From a virus (lineage: Duplodnaviria; Heunggongvirae; Uroviricota; Caudoviricetes): 34,628 nucleotides of DNA. Position numbers and translations under genes: made by a program. Below the pieces are notes generated by a model. The model did not search any database. It worked only from the letters and a program-made list of their open reading frames with translations, and was not told where the DNA came from. Location of the stretch: IMG/VR virus record IMGVR_UViG_2558860472_000005, positions 1 to 34,628 of that record. One strand, written 5' to 3'. This document shows positions 920 to 11,257 of this stretch, in pieces (position 1 is the stretch's first letter; each line of letters starts with the position of its first letter).

Positions 920-2104
920 TTAACCAGTTTTGATTTCCCCGTGTGGAACGACAATCCAATTAATGTGGTTTTGAGTGTAAATCTTAGTCGACTGAGCGTC
1001 GCTATGTGCCATTCGTCCTTGGGGATCGATACCCTGCTGATCGAAAAGATGCGCTGCCAGAGCTCTGATTTCATGAAAGGTTGGTCTTTCATCCATCGGT
1101 AGATTGTCGCATAAACCTAGCTTGTCTCGCGTTGCTGAAAACGATCGACTCAAATAGTCTGGTGCAACTTGTGTCGGATGTGAAACCTCTTTGCTTCGTT
1201 TAACTTGGCGTTCTGGGATTCTGTGAACGACAAACGGACTAGCCACATTATCTCGGCTATCGTCAATTATCCGTTTCAACTCTTCACCAATTGGTATTGC
1301 AACGTGTGACGCCTCTTTTTTTTGCACTTTTTGCCTGTGGATGTAAAGCGTCCCATATATGCCATTTTGTGGTTGTTCGAACCAGACACATCCACATATA
1401 CCGTCTTTAGGTTCGCGAATTGAGTAACGGATTCGCGATACTTCGAGTCGTGCATGTGTAGTTTGCAATGCTAGGTCCATTGCTGTTCTTAACCATGGTG
1501 CAGCGGCCTGCCTGATAGCTATAAAATGCTCGAGTGACAGGCGCCGTCTTTTCTTCTCATCAGTCCTACGCATTTTTTTTCTGATGGCCGGGTTATCCAG
1601 CATTAGTGATTCATCGACCGCATAAGAGAACAACTTTTTAAGAAAGCTGACCTTTCTGTTCTGCACATTTGCGGATGCGCTGGCATGATATTTGTTGATG
1701 TAGGTATTAACGTGTTCAAGTTCGATATCGCATGCCGGAACATTTACGAAAAACGCTTTTACGCGTAGAGCGTCATTTTTCCAGTCATCTAAGGTGCTCT
1801 GGGAAGGACGTTCGTCTTCGATAATCCGGGTCATTATGTGATCAACATGTTCAGCAAATGGTTTTGCTTCTCCGATAACACCGCCAGATTCTCTAATAAG
1901 ATTTTCTACTGATGGAGATAATTCTGCTCTCATCCTCAGGTTGTACTCTCTGGCGATTGCAATGGCTATTGCCCTATCCTTACCTATATTTTTCTTCTTT
2001 CCAGTAATAAGTGTGAATTTATAAACACCTCGATCTTTATCAAAAATCAGATAATCAGGAAGATGTCTGTATTCTTTTTTACGTGGCCTTGCCGCCATGG
2101 TCAC
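920..2104 (-). CDS. int: Tyrosine recombinase / phage integrase
   Basis: 394 aa. C-terminal catalytic-region pattern (HEIRALAAHL ... MAHSD ... TKIYTQ). The 4-nt overlap with a downstream xis-like gene is the typical int-xis arrangement. Confidence 0.9.
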   Translation of the reverse strand: MTMAARPRKKEYRHLPDYLIFDKDRGVYKFTLITGKKKNIGKDRAIAIAIAREYNLRMRAELSPSVENLIRESGGVIGEAKPFAEHVDHIMTRIIEDERPSQSTLDDWKNDALRVKAFFVNVPACDIELEHVNTYINKYHASASANVQNRKVSFLKKLFSYAVDESLMLDNPAIRKKMRRTDEKKRRRLSLEHFIAIRQAAAPWLRTAMDLALQTTHARLEVSRIRYSIREPKDGICGCVWFEQPQNGIYGTLYIHRQKVQKKEASHVAIPIGEELKRIIDDSRDNVASPFVVHRIPERQVKRSKEVSHPTQVAPDYLSRSFSATRDKLGLCDNLPMDERPTFHEIRALAAHLFDQQGIDPQGRMAHSDAQSTKIYTQNHINWIVVPHGEIKTG

Positions 2105-2587: not shown

Positions 2588-2946
2588 TTCTTAGTCTCCG
2601 GTGCTTTCGGCATTACTGCCCAGTGAGTGATATTGACATTTTCAAGGTCCCCGACCTGAAATGTCCGCTGCCATTCTCCGGTTTCTTTTTGCCCCCATGT
2701 GTACCAGAGAGAACGCCAGCCAATCAGCCAGCCTTCTCCACTAGCATCAAATAACAGAACACTTTCATTTGCTGGTGGCAGTTCAGCTGACACTGGTATT
2801 ATTTTGTTTTCCAGTGCCGCACATTTAGCTTCAAGCGCGTTGAATTTACGTACTAGGTACTCAGCATTTGTTTCGTTCACTTTCAGATCTCGCGGTACAC
2901 ATTTCCCGCGAAGAAACCCTTCCATTTCGAAAACATTCATGCGCAT
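2584..2946 (-). CDS. DUF551-like prophage protein (YfdS-like)
   Basis: 120 aa. The Trp-rich C-terminal part (GWLIGWRSLWYTWGQ ... ITHWAVMP) recalls DUF551 proteins of enterobacterial prophages. This is from memory, not a search. Confidence 0.55.
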   Translation of the reverse strand: MRMNVFEMEGFLRGKCVPRDLKVNETNAEYLVRKFNALEAKCAALENKIIPVSAELPPANESVLLFDASGEGWLIGWRSLWYTWGQKETGEWQRTFQVGDLENVNITHWAVMPKAPETKK

Positions 2947-3473
2947 TTGCGTAACTCCGATAACTCGTTAAAACGTTCCATAAACATCCCGTAGGCCTGG
3001 CCCGGTGCCAGTGGAATCACGTTGAACATCTCTGTTGCCGGGATGCCTTCCAGTACAGGCCAGAAAGAGCCATCATCAAGCCCGAGATCGCGGCGTTCGG
3101 TTGCCAGCATGATGAGATCGGCATATTTCACAGGCGTGCTCATAACCGGGGGTAACCCGTATTTTTCACGGATTACGGCGTCTATTTTTTCTTCCATCCG
3201 TTTATAGTCAGGAAGAAGGCGTTTCAGTGGAGCCGGGATGTCCTGGCAATACGCTTCTGTTGCATCATGCATTAACGCTTCAAAAGCAAATTCCTGCGGT
3301 ACCAGCTGGCTGCAAAGCACCGCATGTTGGGCGACGCTGTAGAAGTGTGAAAGATGTCCTGCAAAGCGACAGATATTTGAAAGGGAAACCGCGATATCGT
3401 TAATAACGATGTCGTCTTTATTTATCCTGTCATAATAAAAATGCTTCCCGGAAAAAGTTTTAATAAATGACAT
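2937..3473 (-). CDS. HD-domain phosphohydrolase (YfdR-like 5'-nucleotidase)
   Basis: The likely start is ATG at 3473 (MSFIKTFSG...), preceded by GGAGAA. It carries the H...HD metal-binding pattern (HLSHFYSVAQHAV ... ALMHDATEAY). Confidence 0.75.
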   Translation of the reverse strand: MSFIKTFSGKHFYYDRINKDDIVINDIAVSLSNICRFAGHLSHFYSVAQHAVLCSQLVPQEFAFEALMHDATEAYCQDIPAPLKRLLPDYKRMEEKIDAVIREKYGLPPVMSTPVKYADLIMLATERRDLGLDDGSFWPVLEGIPATEMFNVIPLAPGQAYGMFMERFNELSELRKCA

Positions 3474-4017
3474 TTTGTTCTCCACGTATATGCGCTGCAC
3501 CGCGCTGAATTCGGGTAAAAGGAAGCCCTCACCGTCCGGCGATTATTGAGTCAATTACATTTCCATAAATGCCCCCGTAGGGGCGGTTAGTTTCTCCACA
3601 AAACAGAGAAGAACACCTGTGGTGGCAGCCGCCCGGATGGATTGGGTTATGAGCCCGTCGTCCGATGATGCTCTTCTCTGTTTTGTAAAAAGGACGGTAC
3701 CAGCCGGAAGCAAGGGTACAAGCTGGTACCGCCAAGACAACACACAGCATAAAGTTGTGGTGCCGGGTGCCTCCCGGTGCCTGGCGAAGGTTGTACACCA
3801 GACGGGTGGGTATCCACAGAAGGTCGACTGTCAGCCTCAACCTTAACCCGCGTGCGCTGAGCCGCATTCACCACAACGCTAAGGATTCTCTCTGGTTGAA
3901 AATACTTAGCTGTTATGTGCCTGCTTTTAGCCACATCAGGCGAGGTGGACCTGGTTATTCCCCAACAACAAGGATTCGGTATAATCTGGATATCCCAACA
4001 ACAGGTAGGAAGGAAAT
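3474..4017. other. ORF-free, GC-rich, stem-rich intergenic element (candidate structured RNA or cis-regulatory leader; strand unknown)
   Basis: Only mutually overlapping, Cys/Trp/Arg/Pro-rich ORFs occur, on both strands. Perfect long-range complementarities: 3600-3612/3672-3684 (13 bp), 3695-3704/3722-3731 (10 bp) and 3787-3793/3838-3844 (7 bp). Hairpins at 3571-3584, 3763-3777 and 3806-3817. Confidence 0.35.
3980..3985 (+). promoter_or_regulatory. Candidate -10 element (TATAAT) for the plus-strand accessory operon
   Basis: Perfect TATAAT lies 33 nt upstream of the mini-ORF A start. The -35 is weak. It is bracketed by direct repeats CCCAACAACA(A)GG at 3961-3973 and 3994-4005. Confidence 0.4.
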
Positions 4018-4101
4018 ATGTACGTAGATAGCAATGAAAAATTTCATGTTCCGGTAAATCAGAGACCAGCACCGATCCCTGAGCCGAAACCTGAAATGTA
4101 A
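4018..4101 (+). CDS. Proline-rich mini-ORF A (27 aa: MYVDSNEKFHVPVNQRPAPIPEPKPEM)
   Basis: Strong SD AGGAAGGA (4007-4014). The stop lies 10 nt before the next ATG. It shares H-[VI]-P-x-[KN]-x-R-P motif with mini-ORFs B and C, encoded with different synonymous codons. Confidence 0.45.
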   Translation: MYVDSNEKFHVPVNQRPAPIPEPKPEM

Positions 4102-4111
4102 GGGAATAGAG

Positions 4112-4591
4112 ATGACTCGAGACGATCTAGCATTCGATATTCATTATTCTTTCTTTCTTGAGAAAATGAATTACACCCTTTTAAATCGGATAGACAAGAG
4201 CATAACTCTTGTTCTCATTGTCTTGGGCTTTTCTGTTTTTGCGCCATATAGCAATATGTTTATTTTTGGCGCATCTGTAGCTATTTTGTCGGTGCTTCAA
4301 TTGGTATACCAATTTGGGCAGGAAGCTGGCTTATCAAAGGAACAGATGCGACAGTATAAAAGGTTGATTGTTGAGTTTTCCTCCCTTTCTGATGACGAAC
4401 TACGCACTCGGTTTTTAAAGGTTCAAGACGCTGATAGTAATCCATGGAGATCTTTACAAGATGCTGCGTTCAAACGGACCTGTATTGCGCTGGGACGTGT
4501 TGATGAGTCAGAAATATCATTCATGCATAGCGTTATCGCATGGTTTGCTGGAGATTTGCCTCGGTCAAAAAGGTGTAATAATGACAAATAG
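4112..4591 (+). CDS. Hypothetical 2-TM membrane protein (SLATT-like or superinfection-exclusion-like architecture)
   Basis: 159 aa. A central hydrophobic hairpin (ITLVLIVLGFSVFAPY / MFIFGASVAILSVLQLVYQF) is followed by a helical soluble tail. Low G+C. It lies on the strand opposite PL. Confidence 0.7.
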   Translation: MTRDDLAFDIHYSFFLEKMNYTLLNRIDKSITLVLIVLGFSVFAPYSNMFIFGASVAILSVLQLVYQFGQEAGLSKEQMRQYKRLIVEFSSLSDDELRTRFLKVQDADSNPWRSLQDAAFKRTCIALGRVDESEISFMHSVIAWFAGDLPRSKRCNNDK

Positions 4592-4697
4592 AATTCCCAT
4601 AATCCCTAACCATGTACCTCCAAAGCCCAGACCACCATCACCAAAGTCACACAGGCTTTATGAGTATGAATTAATAATGGATTCTATATTGAGATGA
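4581..4697 (+). CDS. Proline-rich mini-ORF B (38 aa: MTNRIPIIPNHVPPKPRPPSPKSHRLYEYELIMDSILR)
   Basis: The ATG overlaps the end of the 2-TM gene by 11 nt, with SD AAGGTG 5 nt upstream. It carries the shared motif HVPPKPRPPSP. Confidence 0.45.
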   Translation: MTNRIPIIPNHVPPKPRPPSPKSHRLYEYELIMDSILR

Positions 4698-4701
4698 CCA
4701 A

Positions 4702-4791
4702 ATGAATGCATTTATATATACATGGAAAGAGGATCATATACCCTTAAAACCTCGTCCTTCACCGCCAGAACCGAAGCCAAAATCCCGTTAA
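4702..4791 (+). CDS. Proline-rich mini-ORF C (29 aa: MNAFIYTWKEDHIPLKPRPSPPEPKPKSR)
   Basis: Starts 4 nt after the stop of B, with a weak SD. It carries the shared motif HIPLKPRPSPPEPKP. A terminator follows. Confidence 0.4.
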   Translation: MNAFIYTWKEDHIPLKPRPSPPEPKPKSR

Positions 4792-4809
4792 GTGTTGGGG
4801 ATCTCCAGA

Positions 4810-4822
4810 TTGTTAAAGAGCG
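4810..4822 (-). promoter_or_regulatory. boxA-like antitermination element (CGCTCTTTAACAA) in the PL leader
   Basis: The minus-strand sequence CGCUCUUUAACAA matches rrn boxA UGCUCUUUAACAA at 12 of 13 positions and contains the lambda boxA core CGCUCUU. It lies about 100 nt downstream of the predicted PL start, directly 3' of a hairpin (4824-4841). Confidence 0.5.
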
Positions 4823-4823
4823 A

Positions 4824-4850
4824 AGCGTCCTATAGGGCGCTTTTTTGTTG
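4824..4850 (+). terminator. Rho-independent terminator of the plus-strand accessory operon
   Basis: 7-bp stem AGCGUCC/GGGCGCU (one G-U pair), UAUA loop, then a U6 tract. Confidence 0.75.
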
Positions 4851-4931
4851 CTAACGAATCATCCTGGACTTCATATGCCCCAGGCGGCTACTTCGTGGGC
4901 GTCCTGCCTGTTCGTTGTTTCGCTTGGGTAC

Positions 4932-4959
4932 ATTATGTATCTCAAAGGTACATTGTCAA
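4932..4959 (-). promoter_or_regulatory. PL-like early-left promoter
   Basis: Minus strand: TTGACA (4959-4954), 16-nt spacer, CATAAT (4937-4932). The spacer is occupied by an operator-like palindrome. Confidence 0.6.
4935..4953. promoter_or_regulatory. Operator OL (ATGTACC-N5-GATACAT)
   Basis: Same 7-5-7 architecture and half-site (TGTACC/GGTACA) as the two palindromes beside cro. Confidence 0.55.
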
Positions 4960-4998: not shown

Positions 4999-5673
4999 TT
5001 AGGCTTTGATTTTGTATCTTCTTGGTTTTCCTGAGAAAATCACTGTACCAATTATAGAGCAATTACCGTTGATCTTAATGTAAGGCTCAGGCCAGTTTGG
5101 GTTTAACGCTTTGAGATAACGCTGTGTCCCATCTTCTATCAACCTTTTGAAGGTGGTTTCACCTGTATCGTGCATCAATGCAATAACGTCGTCACCGTGG
5201 CAGGCAGGTACTTCAGGATCGACAAAAATCATGTCTCCCGGGCGGTACTCATCAATCATTGAATCACCTATCACCCGCAAGATATAAGTCATTTCCCCAC
5301 AGGGTACAGGGCAGGGATACGTTTCTGCTGTGCTCAAATCAACCTCAGAATATCCAACTTCTTTCCATGCTCCGGCCTGTACCCATGATATGACAGGGAC
5401 TAATGTGATTTGTTTATTAGTGATTGAAACATCAGGTTTTTTTGTGATGTTCGTTGTCTGGTGTTCTTGATCGAGCCATCCGACAGGCAGGTCGAAACAT
5501 CTTTCGATGTGTCGTGCCATGCTGTCACCGATATTTTTAGTAGCACCATCTCCCATAAACCTGCTGGTCTGGGTTGGCTCGCGATCAATCATAGTGGCAA
5601 AGGAAGAATTCCCGCCAACACCATCTCTCAGTTTTCTGGCGTTAGACCGCCGGATGTCATGGATTGTTTTCAT
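4999..5673 (-). CDS. CI-type repressor, LexA-like S24 peptidase family (e14 CohE/YmfK-like)
   Basis: 224 aa with an N-terminal HTH region. The C-terminal part has self-cleavage motifs (VISWVQAGAW, RVIGDSM, ..FKRL..). It is divergent from the cro-like gene. Confidence 0.9.
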   Translation of the reverse strand: MKTIHDIRRSNARKLRDGVGGNSSFATMIDREPTQTSRFMGDGATKNIGDSMARHIERCFDLPVGWLDQEHQTTNITKKPDVSITNKQITLVPVISWVQAGAWKEVGYSEVDLSTAETYPCPVPCGEMTYILRVIGDSMIDEYRPGDMIFVDPEVPACHGDDVIALMHDTGETTFKRLIEDGTQRYLKALNPNWPEPYIKINGNCSIIGTVIFSGKPRRYKIKA

Positions 5674-5688
5674 AACGAAATTAAAACC

Positions 5689-5709
5689 CTTGTACCGTTA
5701 AGGTACAAG
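5689..5709. promoter_or_regulatory. Operator OR-a (CTTGTACC-GTTAA-GGTACAAG, perfect 8-bp arms)
   Basis: Perfect inverted repeat between the cI start and the PR -35. Confidence 0.65.
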
Positions 5710-5713
5710 TATC

Positions 5714-5741
5714 TTGAAGGTTCATTTTAATCATGTAATAT
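5714..5741 (+). promoter_or_regulatory. PR-like early-right promoter
   Basis: TTGAAG (5714-5719), 16-nt spacer, TAATAT (5736-5741). Operator OR-b overlaps the -10 and the start site. Confidence 0.55.
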
Positions 5742-5758
5742 GTACACCGGAGGTACAT
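5740..5758. promoter_or_regulatory. Operator OR-b (ATGTACA-CCGGA-GGTACAT)
   Basis: A 7-5-7 imperfect palindrome with the same half-site, overlapping the PR -10 and the cro SD. Confidence 0.6.
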
Positions 5759-6565: not shown

Positions 6566-6900
6566 ACAGTTTAACAACACACTACCGTCGCTCGCAACTG
6601 ATTGCGCTTCCTGTACCGGGTGGAAAAGCGAAGGTGGAATATTGCTATGCAGTGAATGTACCAGGTGACAGGGAAATTGTAACCCACAGCTTTGCAGAGT
6701 GGGCTGTGGGTGATTTCAACCGGCAGAAGGAGACAGTCCTTTGCGACAAGTTAACCGCTGGTTCAAAGATCACTACGGAGTGCCCGTCAGAGTCATTCGT
6801 TGGGAGCCGGAAACACAACGGGTTATCTACCTCCGCGAAGGTTATGAGCATGAATGCTTCAGTCCGCTCGAACAGTTTCGTCGTAAATTCAGGGAAATAG
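6562..6900 (+). CDS. Hypothetical early protein (YmfM-like position)
   Basis: 112-aa ORF with a 4-nt overlap to the upstream gene. No family recognised. Confidence 0.45.
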
Positions 6901-10868: not shown

Positions 10869-10885
10869 TTTTGTGGAGAAAGTTG

Positions 10886-11257
10886 ATGCGTGATATTCAA
10901 ATGGTTCTTGAACGTTGGGGTGCATGGGTGGCAAATAATCACGAGGATGTCACTTGGTCGTCTATTGCTGCAGGATTTAAAGGACTAATCCCTTCAAAAG
11001 TAAAATCCCGCCCGCAATGTTGTGACGATGACGCGATGATCATTTGTGGGTGTATGGCTCGCCTGAAAAAGAACAACAGCGATTTGCACGATTTATTAGT
11101 GGATTACTATGTAGGAGGTATGACATTTATGGCGCTTGCCCGTAAACATGGGCGTTCTGATTGCTGGGTTGGGCGTTTATTGCAAAAAGCGGAAGGAGTA
11201 GTTGATGGTATGTTGATAATGCTAGATATTGAATTGGAAATGGAACGTAAAATTTAG
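10886..11257 (+). CDS. Late-gene antiterminator Q-like protein
   Basis: The likely start is ATG at 10886, 7 nt after [22 protein letters not shown].. with a Cys cluster ([14 protein letters not shown]), and the last gene before the lysis region. The family assignment is from memory. Confidence 0.6.

Follow-up and report, generated by a model that had tools for sequence, protein, structure and literature searches.

The segment between positions 3474 and 4017 of the window (the whole stretch of 34,628 nucleotides that was analysed) is part of the leftward early (PL) unit of a lambdoid prophage and has yfdR on one side and the immunity region on the other. The PL promoter was located on the minus strand at 4916-4959, with a -35 TTGACA at 4959-4954, a -10 CATAAT at 4937-4932, a predicted start at about 4925 and a scan score of 11/12. 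Two operators with TGTAC-N7-GTACA-like sequence lie over it (4916-4932 and 4936-4952), and the same repeats occur in the cI-cro interval (5691-5757). About 100 nt downstream of the PL start, also on the minus strand, a hairpin (4842-4823) is followed by an rrn-type boxA, CGCUCUUUAACAAUCUGG (4822-4805), which includes an exact minus-strand match to GCTCTTTAACAA at 4810-4821, and the same boxA motif stands between PL and the accessory operon in four other locus clusters. At the left end of the segment, yfdR starts with an ATG at 3473 and encodes a 5'-deoxynucleotidase, as judged by the RefSeq annotation of an identical prophage and by a Pfam YfbR-like / HD match. Its 5' UTR and ribosome-binding site (3474-3570, minus strand) accompany the gene in mEp460 and Stx2c phages with 92-96% identity. 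Pfam and PHROGs scans of the early genes, and of the small ORFs of related leaders, found no N-family protein, and no boxB-like 15-mer was found, so the lambda-type nut site of boxA, boxB and N is incomplete here; Q is present (10871-11257), and the late region holds no copy of the element described below. The view of the first-pass annotation that the segment belongs to the leftward early leader of an N-less prophage was borne out, there being no recognisable N gene.

That annotation had treated the 544 bp as a single element. We found at least four modules on the minus strand, and the rightmost ~110 bp (3910-4017) turned out to be the promoter region and 5' UTR of an accessory operon transcribed from the plus strand, with a perfect -10 TATAAT at 3980-3985 and the left arm (3983-3996) of a ~20-nt inverted repeat that brackets the operon. 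Klebsiella phage Kp4884-1 and phiES15 have kept this part along with accessory operons of this kind. The stems that had been proposed are all present at their coordinates: a perfect 13-bp complement (3600-3612 with 3672-3684), which lies inside an 18-nt inverted repeat of 94% (3598-3615 with 3669-3686), a perfect 10-bp complement (3695-3704 with 3722-3731), which forms the arms of a terminator, a perfect 7-bp complement (3787-3793 with 3838-3844), which forms the strands of a pseudoknot, and hairpins at 3806-3817, 3571-3584 and 3763-3777. The longest perfect inverted repeat in 3474-4017 measures 15 nt, against a mean of 7.7 and a maximum of 11 in 200 mononucleotide shuffles. Moreover, the minimum free energy z-score of 3565-3900 was -5.2 for the minus and -3.6 for the plus strand, and on either strand none of 100 shuffles folded as well. 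The G+C counts of 36/60 (3721-3780) and 18/60 (4141-4200) could be reproduced, but the description of the segment as GC-rich holds only in relation to the neighbouring AT-rich accessory operon (41%), and not in relation to the window as a whole (52% in the segment vs an average of 50.4%).

At the centre of the segment we found a structured core of ~125 nt (3754-3877, minus strand). Its closing helix P1 (3877-3869 / 3762-3754) is joined by an AAU junction (3868-3866) to the hairpin P2 (3865-3850), and these are followed by P3 (3849-3846 / 3807-3804), a variable P4 region (3837-3808), P5 (3803-3798 / 3784-3779) and P6, CCGGG-AGGCA-CCCGG (3777-3763). A pseudoknot spanning 3787-3844 pairs AAGGUUG (3844-3838), directly 3' of P3, with CAACCUU in the P5 loop (3793-3787). 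The minimum free energy fold reproduces P1, P2, P5 and P6, and compensatory changes in 44 clusters of sequences from Enterobacterales prophages support P1, P2, P3, P5 and P6 as well as the loop-bulge pseudoknot. On alignment A6, 93.7% of the cells of these five helices were paired, compared with 77.7% in column shuffles (0/500 reached the observed value), changes had occurred on both sides in 23 of the 31 pairs, and sliding the partners along the alignment brought pairing down to 29-46%. Complementarity of the pseudoknot strands is kept by at least eight different sequence pairs at the same anchored positions. When only Watson-Crick pairs at anchored positions were counted, matched strands formed a mean of 6.8 bp and swapped strands 3.5 bp, with 5 of 90 swaps reaching the matched value; this was the only test that separated matched from swapped strands, whereas tests allowing G-U pairs and unanchored windows were not discriminating. 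Model R1, a model built only from 14 sequences of the leader clade, recognised the window with 73 bits (E = 2e-19) at 3751-3881. Its best other match in the window reached 11.6 bits (E = 0.62), and neither BLAST, nor a motif search with up to three mismatches, nor Rfam revealed a second copy of the element in the 34.6 kb. Across relatives, P1 ranges from 9 to 24 bp and is very stable; P2, P6 and the junction stay invariant from Escherichia to Klebsiella, Pantoea and Buttiauxella, and some leaders (L063, L056) carry tandem related domains. The helices contain G-U pairs only when read on the minus strand, the plus strand giving A-C mismatches at these places, and the minus strand is also the better fold; the functional strand is thus the minus strand, which agrees with one of the two options that had been put forward.

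The 3' strand of P1 is followed by a GU-rich single-stranded linker, UUUAUGCUGUGUGUUGUCUU (3734-3753, minus strand), which is unpaired in the minimum free energy fold and constitutes a candidate seed or Hfq-contact region. The motif UGCUGUGUGUAGUC is kept in the terminator-bearing subfamilies although their 5' flanks differ, and TGCTGTGT is enriched ~25-fold in the 32 nt after P1 relative to sequence farther downstream. A search for sites complementary to the linker within the window returned chance-level matches only, and an extended helix P0, formed by the 5' flank and the GU-rich linker, was rejected because the linker is constant while the 5' flank varies. The linker leads into an intrinsic terminator (3687-3733, minus strand), in which the stem GGCGGUACCAGC / GCUGGUACCGUC pairs 10/12 bp at 3733-3693 and is followed by a U-tract at 3691-3687, which predicts a 3' end of the RNA at about 3688. 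This terminator is conserved, with a compensatory CGGCGUC / GACGCCG stem in ST64B and another stem followed by a run of seven U in phiES15. Next on the minus strand comes module 2, a hairpin of ~25 bp (3593-3691, minus strand) whose 5' arm begins in the terminator U-tract and whose apex, GACGGGCUCAUAACCCAAUCC, is conserved; a consensus fold of eight homologues shows compensatory pairs at columns 106-199, 121-145 and 99-206, and we regard this hairpin as a candidate for processing, by RNase III for instance. Module 2 and the terminator occur together in 2,768 of 5,426 complete E. coli genomes. A further hairpin, GCCCCUACGGGGGC (3584-3571, minus strand), lies at a module junction upstream of the first early-left gene. 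The first-pass annotation had let the RNA end there, but this hairpin lacks a U-tract and the conserved terminator is the one at 3733-3687. The same place is taken by a hairpin of other sequence in ST64B, phiNP and mEp460, and in mEp460 and Stx2c phages the junction hairpin is duplicated, flanking extra yfdQ and yfdP-like genes.

The surroundings of the element vary among its relatives. In nearly all loci a gene for a cI-like repressor precedes the element on the same strand, at a distance of 180-1,100 nt, and in the shortest leaders the element begins within ~50-100 nt of the PL start; the distance from the core to PL in the window is ~1,050 nt. The genes downstream differ between loci, and many subfamilies have no terminator. 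In these, small early-left genes follow within 40-60 nt of the core and code for membrane peptides, for 40-residue peptides (at the place of cIII, before kil) or for Kil itself. For these subfamilies a terminator-delimited small RNA is impossible. One subfamily (L067, L072, L108) is found downstream of tRNA genes, in late or accessory regions. Immediately 5' of P1, at a distance of 5-24 nt, relatives carry the motif RUGCUCUY, enriched ~20-fold, which is degenerate in the window (AAUCCUUAGCG). No conserved local promoter was found directly upstream of P1, and reading the 5' flank as a -10 element for a start at P1 found no support, positions -11 and -7 being conserved in only 47% and 29% of the sequences. 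Expression in a lysogen would consequently need a leaky PL, read-through or processing.

The first-pass annotation had matched the segment to no RNA family. We found no Rfam match at the gathering threshold in the whole window, but STnc100 (RF02076) aligned with its full model (1-206) to 3684-3907 on the minus strand with 39.6 bits (E = 6e-7), under its gathering score of 47, and five other subfamilies of the clade gave 30.5-35.1 bits with the same model, likewise under 47. In the opposite direction, model R1 finds the canonical STnc100 of phage 933W with 63.5 bits (E = 1.5e-16), an RNA which Rfam scores at 207.7 bits. Copies of STnc100 are expressed, one of them confirmed by Northern blot, and overlap the Hfq-bound EcOnc27, and RIL-seq data show PasD as an abundant RNA associated with Hfq. 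PasB was also considered as the identity of the element and rejected, as it lies in a structural-gene operon, and the literature on small RNAs of ST64B yielded nothing useful. A sister variant at the same locus is sRNA-17 of E. coli K1 strain RS218, an ArcA-modulated RNA of 193 nt defined by 5'/3' RACE and Northern blot (Front Microbiol 2020, PMC7719688). Its sequence, taken from the supplement of that paper, is identical to positions 3308 to 3116 of the mEp460 locus L003; its mapped 5' end is the first base of P1, and its mapped 3' end falls in the terminator U-tract homologous to 3691-3687. The equivalent stretch of the window is 3877-3688, with the same P1, junction and terminator. Over the whole alignment 117 of 203 columns are identical, the ends being near-identical and the core divergent. 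Model R1 gives sRNA-17 19.5 bits, and a search of sRNA-17 with the Rfam STnc100 model gave no match at E <= 0.01. The authors of that study defined its members by BLASTN and reported no Rfam homologue, an Mfold structure (their Supplementary Figure 1) and no comparative fold; the window would fall among the copies that they call 'degenerative' (<193 bp). What is reported of the mechanism is thin, with EMSA done at micromolar ArcA and no direct targets identified (PMC7719688).

Taken together, we think it reasonably likely that the minus strand from 3877 to about 3688 specifies a ~190-nt non-coding RNA of the STnc100/PasD/sRNA-17 kind, delimited by the terminator, which also attenuates transcription from PL; the two transcript ends are placed by analogy with sRNA-17. 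We hypothesise that leftward transcription, initiated at PL once this is derepressed, or possibly at a weak start site nearby, would fold the core, and that most polymerases would then stop at the 3733-3687 terminator and release a stable and discrete small RNA. Judging from its relatives, we infer that the released RNA would act in trans, using the exposed linker and the hairpin of the terminator and probably assisted by Hfq. At the same time, the terminator could work in cis as a tL-like attenuator ahead of yfdR, xis and int. By reading through, the remaining polymerases would transcribe the 25-bp hairpin of module 2 and the junction hairpin, which probably guide processing and make the 5' end of the mRNA that follows more stable. 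The invariant nucleotides of the core are paired or junction elements (P2, P6, AAU) and include no single-stranded seed, which fits an RNA that binds a protein or a machine better than a typical Hfq small RNA, and points to a shared structured partner rather than to seed pairing only.

Several other explanations of the locus were weighed against this small RNA. It is extremely improbable, in our judgement, that the segment is a decayed or unrecognised protein gene, even though three annotations say so: PGAP calls a frameshifted hypothetical protein at ~3555-3874 on the minus strand, SfII_35 is annotated here in phage SfII, and a plus-strand ORF (3619-3846) matches phrog_3651 with E = 1e-47. 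The segment is not literally ORF-free, as had been claimed, since stop-free frames reach 122 codons, yet the called ORFs bear no coding signature. Substitutions between the window and ST64B fall on the three codon positions as 16/22/16 and 16/23/18 in the two called ORFs, without an excess at the third position in either frame, and the indels measure 20, 1 and 1 nt; lacking codon periodicity and having indels that break the frame, the segment is non-coding. One 1-nt indel falls inside the most conserved block, right after the only conserved ATG, and length variation is concentrated in helices, where the changes are compensatory. Furthermore, the ORFs of the segment match no Pfam family, ST64B and several other phages annotate nothing at the locus, and conserved DNA that is repeatedly called as an ORF would by itself yield a PHROG family. 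The PGAP pseudogene, SfII_35 and phrog_3651 are thus probably not genes, and the earlier proposal of a structured RNA in place of a protein gene agrees with the fold, which beats shuffles, with the compensatory changes and with this lack of a coding signature. A transcript of the plus strand, antisense to the PL leader or regulating the neighbouring operon for a two-transmembrane protein and a peptide, seems to us highly improbable as well. That strand does fold better than shuffles, it has a terminator-like hairpin at 3570-3585, and the accessory operon begins ~100 bp to the right; against this, its helices would have A-C mismatches in place of G-U pairs, the conserved U-tract terminator and the equivalent of sRNA-17 are on the minus strand, the promoter of the accessory operon faces away from the element, and many phages, ST64B for example, have the element without the operon. 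Very unlikely, too, is a riboswitch-like or signal-sensing leader, in which the junction and pseudoknot would form a pocket for a ligand or protein that sets early-left termination or translation. Such a leader would account for the multi-helix junction with its invariant nucleotides, for the pseudoknot, for the tandem domains, and for the position of the core ahead of a terminator in some subfamilies and ahead of a ribosome-binding site and start codon in others. However, a helix of such length and stability as P1 is not a plausible switching helix, and no conserved alternative pairing of P1 or the core with the terminator or ribosome-binding site was seen: that of P5 with the terminator arms amounts to ~5 bp at most, and ST64B does not conserve it. 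No metabolic theme unites the downstream genes, there is no match to an Rfam riboswitch, and the relatives accumulate as free small RNAs.

A rather unlikely alternative is that the nascent pseudoknotted core, perhaps with the adjacent boxA-like motif, binds RNA polymerase or Nus factors and makes transcription from PL pass the terminator immediately downstream as well as later ones, replacing N and nutL in the manner of put or of an rrn leader. The setting invites this idea, with a cI-like repressor gene upstream in nearly all loci and PL close by in the shortest leaders, Q but no N-family protein found in the window, nor any N-family protein in related leaders, and an intrinsic terminator standing between the element and the early-left genes. 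The invariance of P2, P6 and the junction across genera makes a host partner plausible, RUGCUCUY is enriched 5' of P1, PL is followed after ~100 nt by a perfect rrn-type boxA, and the sister variant is carried by mEp460, a phage of a collection isolated as Nus-dependent. On the other hand, the element is present in a single copy, whereas HK022 has both putL and putR, it lies ~1,050 nt from PL in the window, and the adjacent boxA-like motif is degenerate here. STnc100 relatives and the L067/L072/L108 subfamily sit in late or accessory regions, and sRNA-17 is a discrete terminated RNA, which, if its 5' end is a true start, would put the domain outside the PL transcript. A match to HK022 putL / putR, CGGGUUNAGGNUGA, was dismissed as chance, because it falls in the P3 and pseudoknot strands, at positions that covary among subfamilies. 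The put-like role suggested by the first-pass annotation stays unproven, with neither sequence nor architectural homology to HK022 put and no copy in the rightward operon. We give a small chance also to a further possibility, in which the invariant core, in place of scaffolding a base-pairing small RNA, would be a binder of host machinery (RNA polymerase or Nus) that, together with the adjacent boxA-like motif, confers termination-resistant leftward transcription in N-less phages, the free small RNAs sRNA-17, STnc100 and PasD being its released or terminated form. If true, this would be a second RNA-based antitermination system, structurally unrelated to HK022 put, in a large group that includes SfV, SfII, ST64B, mEp460 and e14-like phages. 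The element is an obvious candidate for how N-less lambdoid phages pass early-left terminators.

The small RNA that we favour would belong to a common and unannotated element. The core is present at >=95% identity in 1,871 of 5,426 complete E. coli genomes, about a third, where RefSeq gives it no annotation or the label 'hypothetical protein', and members of the clade are found in Klebsiella, Citrobacter, Buttiauxella, Pantoea and Mixta as well. The CPS-53 prophage of E. coli K-12 has lost the element, so transcriptomics of K-12 cannot help. Recognising the element as an RNA would remove the spurious gene calls made at the locus (the PGAP pseudogene, SfII_35 and phrog_3651), and ties together three separately named RNAs, STnc100, PasD and sRNA-17, with a leader clade that has no name.

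Compared with known systems, the element resembles HK022 put in being a structured nascent RNA near PL of an N-less lambdoid phage, ahead of the early-left genes and terminators. However, put RNA has ~70 nt and two stems, with one copy in each early operon, while the element has ~125 nt, five helices and a pseudoknot, in a single copy, and model R1 found nothing in the HK022 loci. With lambda nutL/N and the rrn leader it has in common a boxA-like motif beside a structured RNA in the PL leader, the hairpin and boxA ~100 nt from PL, and a GU-rich, boxC-like stretch after the domain; unlike lambda nutL, it has neither an N protein nor the 15-nt boxB hairpin, and the boxA-like motif adjacent to it is degenerate in the window. 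The resemblance to sRNA-17 comprises the locus (in an SfV/mEp460-type prophage, with the immunity region to one side and the first early-left gene to the other), P1 (GUUGUGGUG / CACCACAAC), the AAU junction, and the terminator and hairpin module (93% identity, 3573-3735). The core interior differs, with a P2 of GCGCA-GGCUGA-UGCGC and a P6 of CCGG-AGAUCAGCA-CCGG in sRNA-17, and so does the linker. STnc100, which includes EcOnc27 / sRNA103, and the related PasD1 and PasD2 also have a closing helix ending in GGUG / CACC, the AAU junction and the P2 hairpin, then a P5 loop that pairs with the strand after P2/P3 (CUGGU / ACCAG in 933W), like the pseudoknot of the window, and an invariant P6, CACCGGGAGGCACCCGGCACC, followed by a linker and an intrinsic terminator. 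The window shows this architecture, including the invariant CCGGGAGGCACCCGG hairpin, which directly adjoins the 3' strand of P1, and the 3' intrinsic terminator at 3733-3687; the consensus structure that Rfam prints with its STnc100 alignments lacks the pseudoknot. The two groups differ in P2, which is GCGGC..GC(N)CGC in this clade and CCCCC..GGGGG in STnc100, and in location, canonical STnc100 being found in the late region, after Q and stx2B and before an esterase gene, whereas the clade is found mostly in the PL leader, as in the window, where the element lies between PL / cI and yfdR. Detection nevertheless works in both directions, and both groups are carried by lambdoid prophages of Enterobacteriaceae. 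Sequence comparison thus indicates that the window RNA, STnc100, PasD and sRNA-17 share one fold, with invariant hairpins and a covarying pseudoknot.

The ORF-poor 544 bp at 3474-4017 hold a structured, non-coding RNA on the minus strand. The first-pass annotation had proposed such an RNA on either strand, and the minus-strand half of this proposal was supported by the folding z-score of 3565-3900 (-5.2, versus -3.6 on the plus strand); the plus-strand half was discarded because the G-U pairs are compatible only with an RNA read from the minus strand. Its perfect complementarities of 13, 10 and 7 bp and its three hairpins were all recovered exactly where it had placed them, and its GC counts (36/60 and 18/60) were correct. 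The segment is GC-rich only relative to the adjacent accessory operon (41% GC), its own 52% GC being close to the window average. Perfect inverted repeats reach 15 nt in 3474-4017, whereas in 200 shuffles the longest one averages 7.7 nt, with a maximum of 11.

The core of the RNA is a domain of ~125 nt (3877-3754), in which P1 (3877-3869 / 3762-3754) is followed by an AAU junction (3868-3866), P2 (3865-3850), P3 (3849-3846 / 3807-3804), a variable P4 (3837-3808), P5 (3803-3798 / 3784-3779) and P6 (CCGGG-AGGCA-CCCGG, 3777-3763), all on the minus strand, with P6 directly abutting the 3' strand of P1. Covariation across related prophages, suggested as a check, was found: in a covariance-model alignment, which is fitted to the model's structure and thus biased towards it, the nested helices were paired in 93.7% of cells versus 77.7% in shuffles (0/500 shuffles as high), 23 of the 31 helix pairs had changed on both sides, and sliding the 3' partners left pairing at only 29-46%. 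Compensatory changes were also evident in unfitted MAFFT alignments, and P1 ranges from 4 to 24 bp among relatives, with many sequence variants. The 7-bp complementarity forms a pseudoknot between the strand following P3 (3844-3838) and the P5 loop (3793-3787), kept by at least 8 different sequence pairs at the same anchored positions. When only Watson-Crick pairs were counted, matched strands gave a mean of 6.8 bp versus 3.5 bp for swapped strands (5/90 swaps equalled the matched value); looser tests did not discriminate matched from swapped strands.

Several ORFs have been annotated over this region, namely a PGAP "frameshifted hypothetical protein" (a pseudogene in the public annotation, 3555-3874, minus strand), SfII_35 and phrog_3651, a whole PHROG family matching an ORF that lies across the RNA region (3619-3846, plus strand). 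The evidence speaks against each of these as a protein-coding gene, in agreement with the earlier claim that no credible coding frame exists here. When the window is compared with Salmonella phage ST64B (77% identical), substitutions split across codon positions as 16/22/16 and 16/23/18 in the two called frames, with no third-position excess; indels of 20, 1 and 1 nt break the frame, one 1-nt indel falling in the most conserved block, and no Pfam family matched the region.

Downstream of P1, still on the minus strand, a GU-rich linker (3753-3734), conserved in terminator-bearing subfamilies, leads directly into a terminator (3733-3687), whose stem is preserved by compensatory changes in ST64B; phiES15 carries a different terminator in the same place. 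Module 2, a hairpin of ~25 bp (3691-3593), starts in the U-tract and has a conserved apex and a few compensatory pairs; its length would suit an RNase III substrate. The hairpin at 3584-3571, at which the RNA had been proposed to end, has no U-tract, and the conserved terminator is instead the one at 3733-3687. This hairpin is kept with altered sequence in ST64B, phiNP and mEp460, and it marks a module junction, since in mEp460 a copy stands at either end of the additional yfdQ and yfdP-like genes. The remainder of the segment comprises the 5' untranslated region of yfdR (3570-3474, minus strand) and, on the plus strand, a part belonging to the accessory operon (3910-4017) with a perfect TATAAT (3980-3985) and one arm, the left, of a ~20-nt inverted repeat.

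The window is a lambdoid prophage with 100% identity to prophages of E. coli GE3, MLI107 and other strains. Rightward of int (920-2104, minus strand) come several small genes; yfdR, for a 5'-deoxynucleotidase (2937-3473, minus strand), lies directly left of the element, and the accessory operon (4019-4843, plus strand) lies to its right, followed by ymfK, a LexA-like repressor gene equivalent to cI (4999-5673, minus strand), a cro-like and a CII-like gene, and the Q antiterminator gene (10871-11257). Operator-like repeats TGTAC-N7-GTACA occur in the cI-cro interval (5691-5757) and again at 4916-4952, overlapping a minus-strand promoter with 11/12 consensus matches (-35 at 4959-4954, -10 at 4937-4932) that adjoins the cI terminator, just past it. 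This is PL, the leftward early promoter, so that the element sits ~1,050 nt into the leftward early transcript; PL transcription must cross the accessory operon antisense before reaching it. Neither the window nor related leaders yielded a recognisable N-like protein.

The accessory operon is bracketed by the ~20-nt inverted repeat (3983-3996 and 4798-4811, AATCTGGA(T/G)ATCCC(C)AACA), which might mark a mobile or invertible cassette or, alternatively, could form a long-range helix on the PL transcript, looping out ~800 nt of antisense RNA. Three short plus-strand ORFs of 26, 38 and 29 codons (4019-4099, 4581-4697 and 4702-4791) surround a 159-residue protein (4112-4591, phrog_6315) with two transmembrane segments according to the first-pass annotation. 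Each of the three has, within it or at its end, a proline-rich P-x-P-K-P-type motif (PAPIPEPKPE, PPKPRPPSPK and PLKPRPSPPEPKPK), a repetition that looks deliberate. On the minus strand, ~100 nt downstream of the PL start, 4805-4842 holds a hairpin followed by CGCUCUUUAACAAUCUGG, in which GCUCUUUAACAAU matches the E. coli rrn boxA; the hairpin doubles as the operon's plus-strand terminator, and the same motif recurs in 4 other locus clusters, again between PL and the accessory operon. Directly downstream of the predicted PL, loci L019, L111, L109, L013 and L071 share a conserved motif (AUCGA..., hairpin, (G)GUUAAACGUUC, GC hairpin, UAAGG), a different conserved leader block is common to ST64B and L013, and a third to L076 and L093. 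Long PL leaders such as these resemble stacked modules of conserved non-coding sequence. In L007-type loci the early-left genes begin, 50-170 nt beyond the element, with very small but conserved ORFs. Two of these encode membrane peptides of 35-36 residues with a single pass (MIREHEVPAW..., MSKNGIRSLVI...) and one encodes a peptide of 40 residues (M.DF.R.P...LCYLLAQKGNPE); a kil homologue is next. Adjacent Rfam matches to isrK and C4 antisense RNA are present in the rightward operons of ST64B (L002, 5732-5920) and mEp460 (L003, 5652-5840); the window lacks both.

Parts of the region turn up in 74 phage records, among them SfII, SfIV, SfV, ST64B, mEp460, cdtI, Stx2c phages, phiES15, phiNP and Klebsiella phages. 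The family was collected with a pattern joining two invariant blocks, which matched at least 120 viral contigs and, in representative genomes of 20 species, 22 stretches from Escherichia, Shigella, Citrobacter, Klebsiella, Lelliottia, Pseudescherichia, Buttiauxella, Pantoea and Mixta; the collected loci gave at least 109 unique cores in at least 44 clusters at 93% identity. Of 5,426 complete E. coli genomes, 1,871 carry the core, annotated as an RNA in none, and 2,768 carry the terminator with module 2. A covariance model built from 14 sequences of this clade (R1) also matched the rightward operon of the window (6642-6696, plus strand); at 11.6 bits (E = 0.62, 55 nt aligned) we regard this match as noise.

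Taken together, the element is probably a structured small RNA of ~190 nt, delimited by a terminator and of the same kind as STnc100, PasD and sRNA-17: transcription of the early-left leader would release it at the terminator (3733-3687), which would double as an attenuator of PL transcription. By analogy with its relatives, such an RNA may act in trans, with ends like theirs. Several features speak against a simple Hfq small RNA: the terminator is missing in many subfamilies, the invariant nucleotides sit in structured elements and not in a single-stranded seed, and P1 has no conserved promoter ahead of it.

The main alternative, though an unlikely one, is that the element acts in cis in antitermination, possibly assisted by boxA. 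A cis role in transcription elongation is favoured by the cI-like gene lying 180-1,100 nt upstream on the same strand at nearly all loci, by the element starting within ~50-100 nt of PL in the shortest leaders, and by the variety of downstream genes (yfdR, yfdP, yfdQ and kil, or genes for small membrane peptides and for peptides of 40 residues placed like cIII, before kil). Just 5' of P1, moreover, the boxA-like RUGCUCUY is enriched ~20-fold, a perfect rrn-type boxA lies ~100 nt from the PL start, and the mEp phages were isolated as Nus-dependent. Against a put-like role, however, the element is single copy, no second one having been found in the window, and shows no homology with put; the canonical STnc100 maps to the late region, sRNA-17 is discrete and terminated, and one subfamily (L067, L072, L108) follows tRNA genes (in L108 also a DNA methyltransferase-like ORF, identified by eye), outside the immunity region. 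This subfamily precedes membrane or lipoprotein genes, a context that resembles a late or accessory region more than a PL leader.

The small-RNA reading draws on comparison with known prophage RNAs. An Rfam scan had been proposed; it gave no match at gathering thresholds, and at relaxed thresholds the STnc100 model (RF02076) aligned with the element end to end (39.6 bits, E = 6e-7; gathering score 47) and scored 30.5-35.1 bits with other subfamilies; the clade is not captured by Rfam. R1 in turn recovers the canonical STnc100 of phage 933W (63.5 bits, E = 1.5e-16), which lies downstream of stx2B, scores 207.7 bits with Rfam, and has the helices of the clade plus a candidate pseudoknot of like type (CUGGU / ACCAG), whereas the Rfam consensus structure, as printed with the alignments, has none. 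Copies of STnc100 are expressed, as a Northern blot confirmed for one of them, and overlap with the Hfq-bound EcOnc27; PasD, an abundant Hfq-associated RNA, was tied to STnc100 in a 2026 preprint. At the same site, mEp460 and Stx2c phages have a weaker "type B" variant (P2 GCGCA-GGCUGA-UGCGC, P6 CCGG-AGAUCAGCA-CCGG), and its sequence is that of the published sRNA-17 of E. coli K1 RS218. Two loci carry tandem domains on the same strand, the sRNA-17 type 235-370 nt upstream of the main type (L063, 3172-3280 and 3549-3675; L056, 6677-6812 and 6306-6442). sRNA-17 is 193 nt long, RACE-mapped and seen by Northern blot, with no Rfam homologue reported (PMC7719688), and the literature examined held no link from it to STnc100 or PasD. 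Its 193 nt begin exactly at the first P1 base and end at the U-tract of a terminator that the window shares, and by analogy the window's RNA would span 3877 to ~3688, 190 nt.
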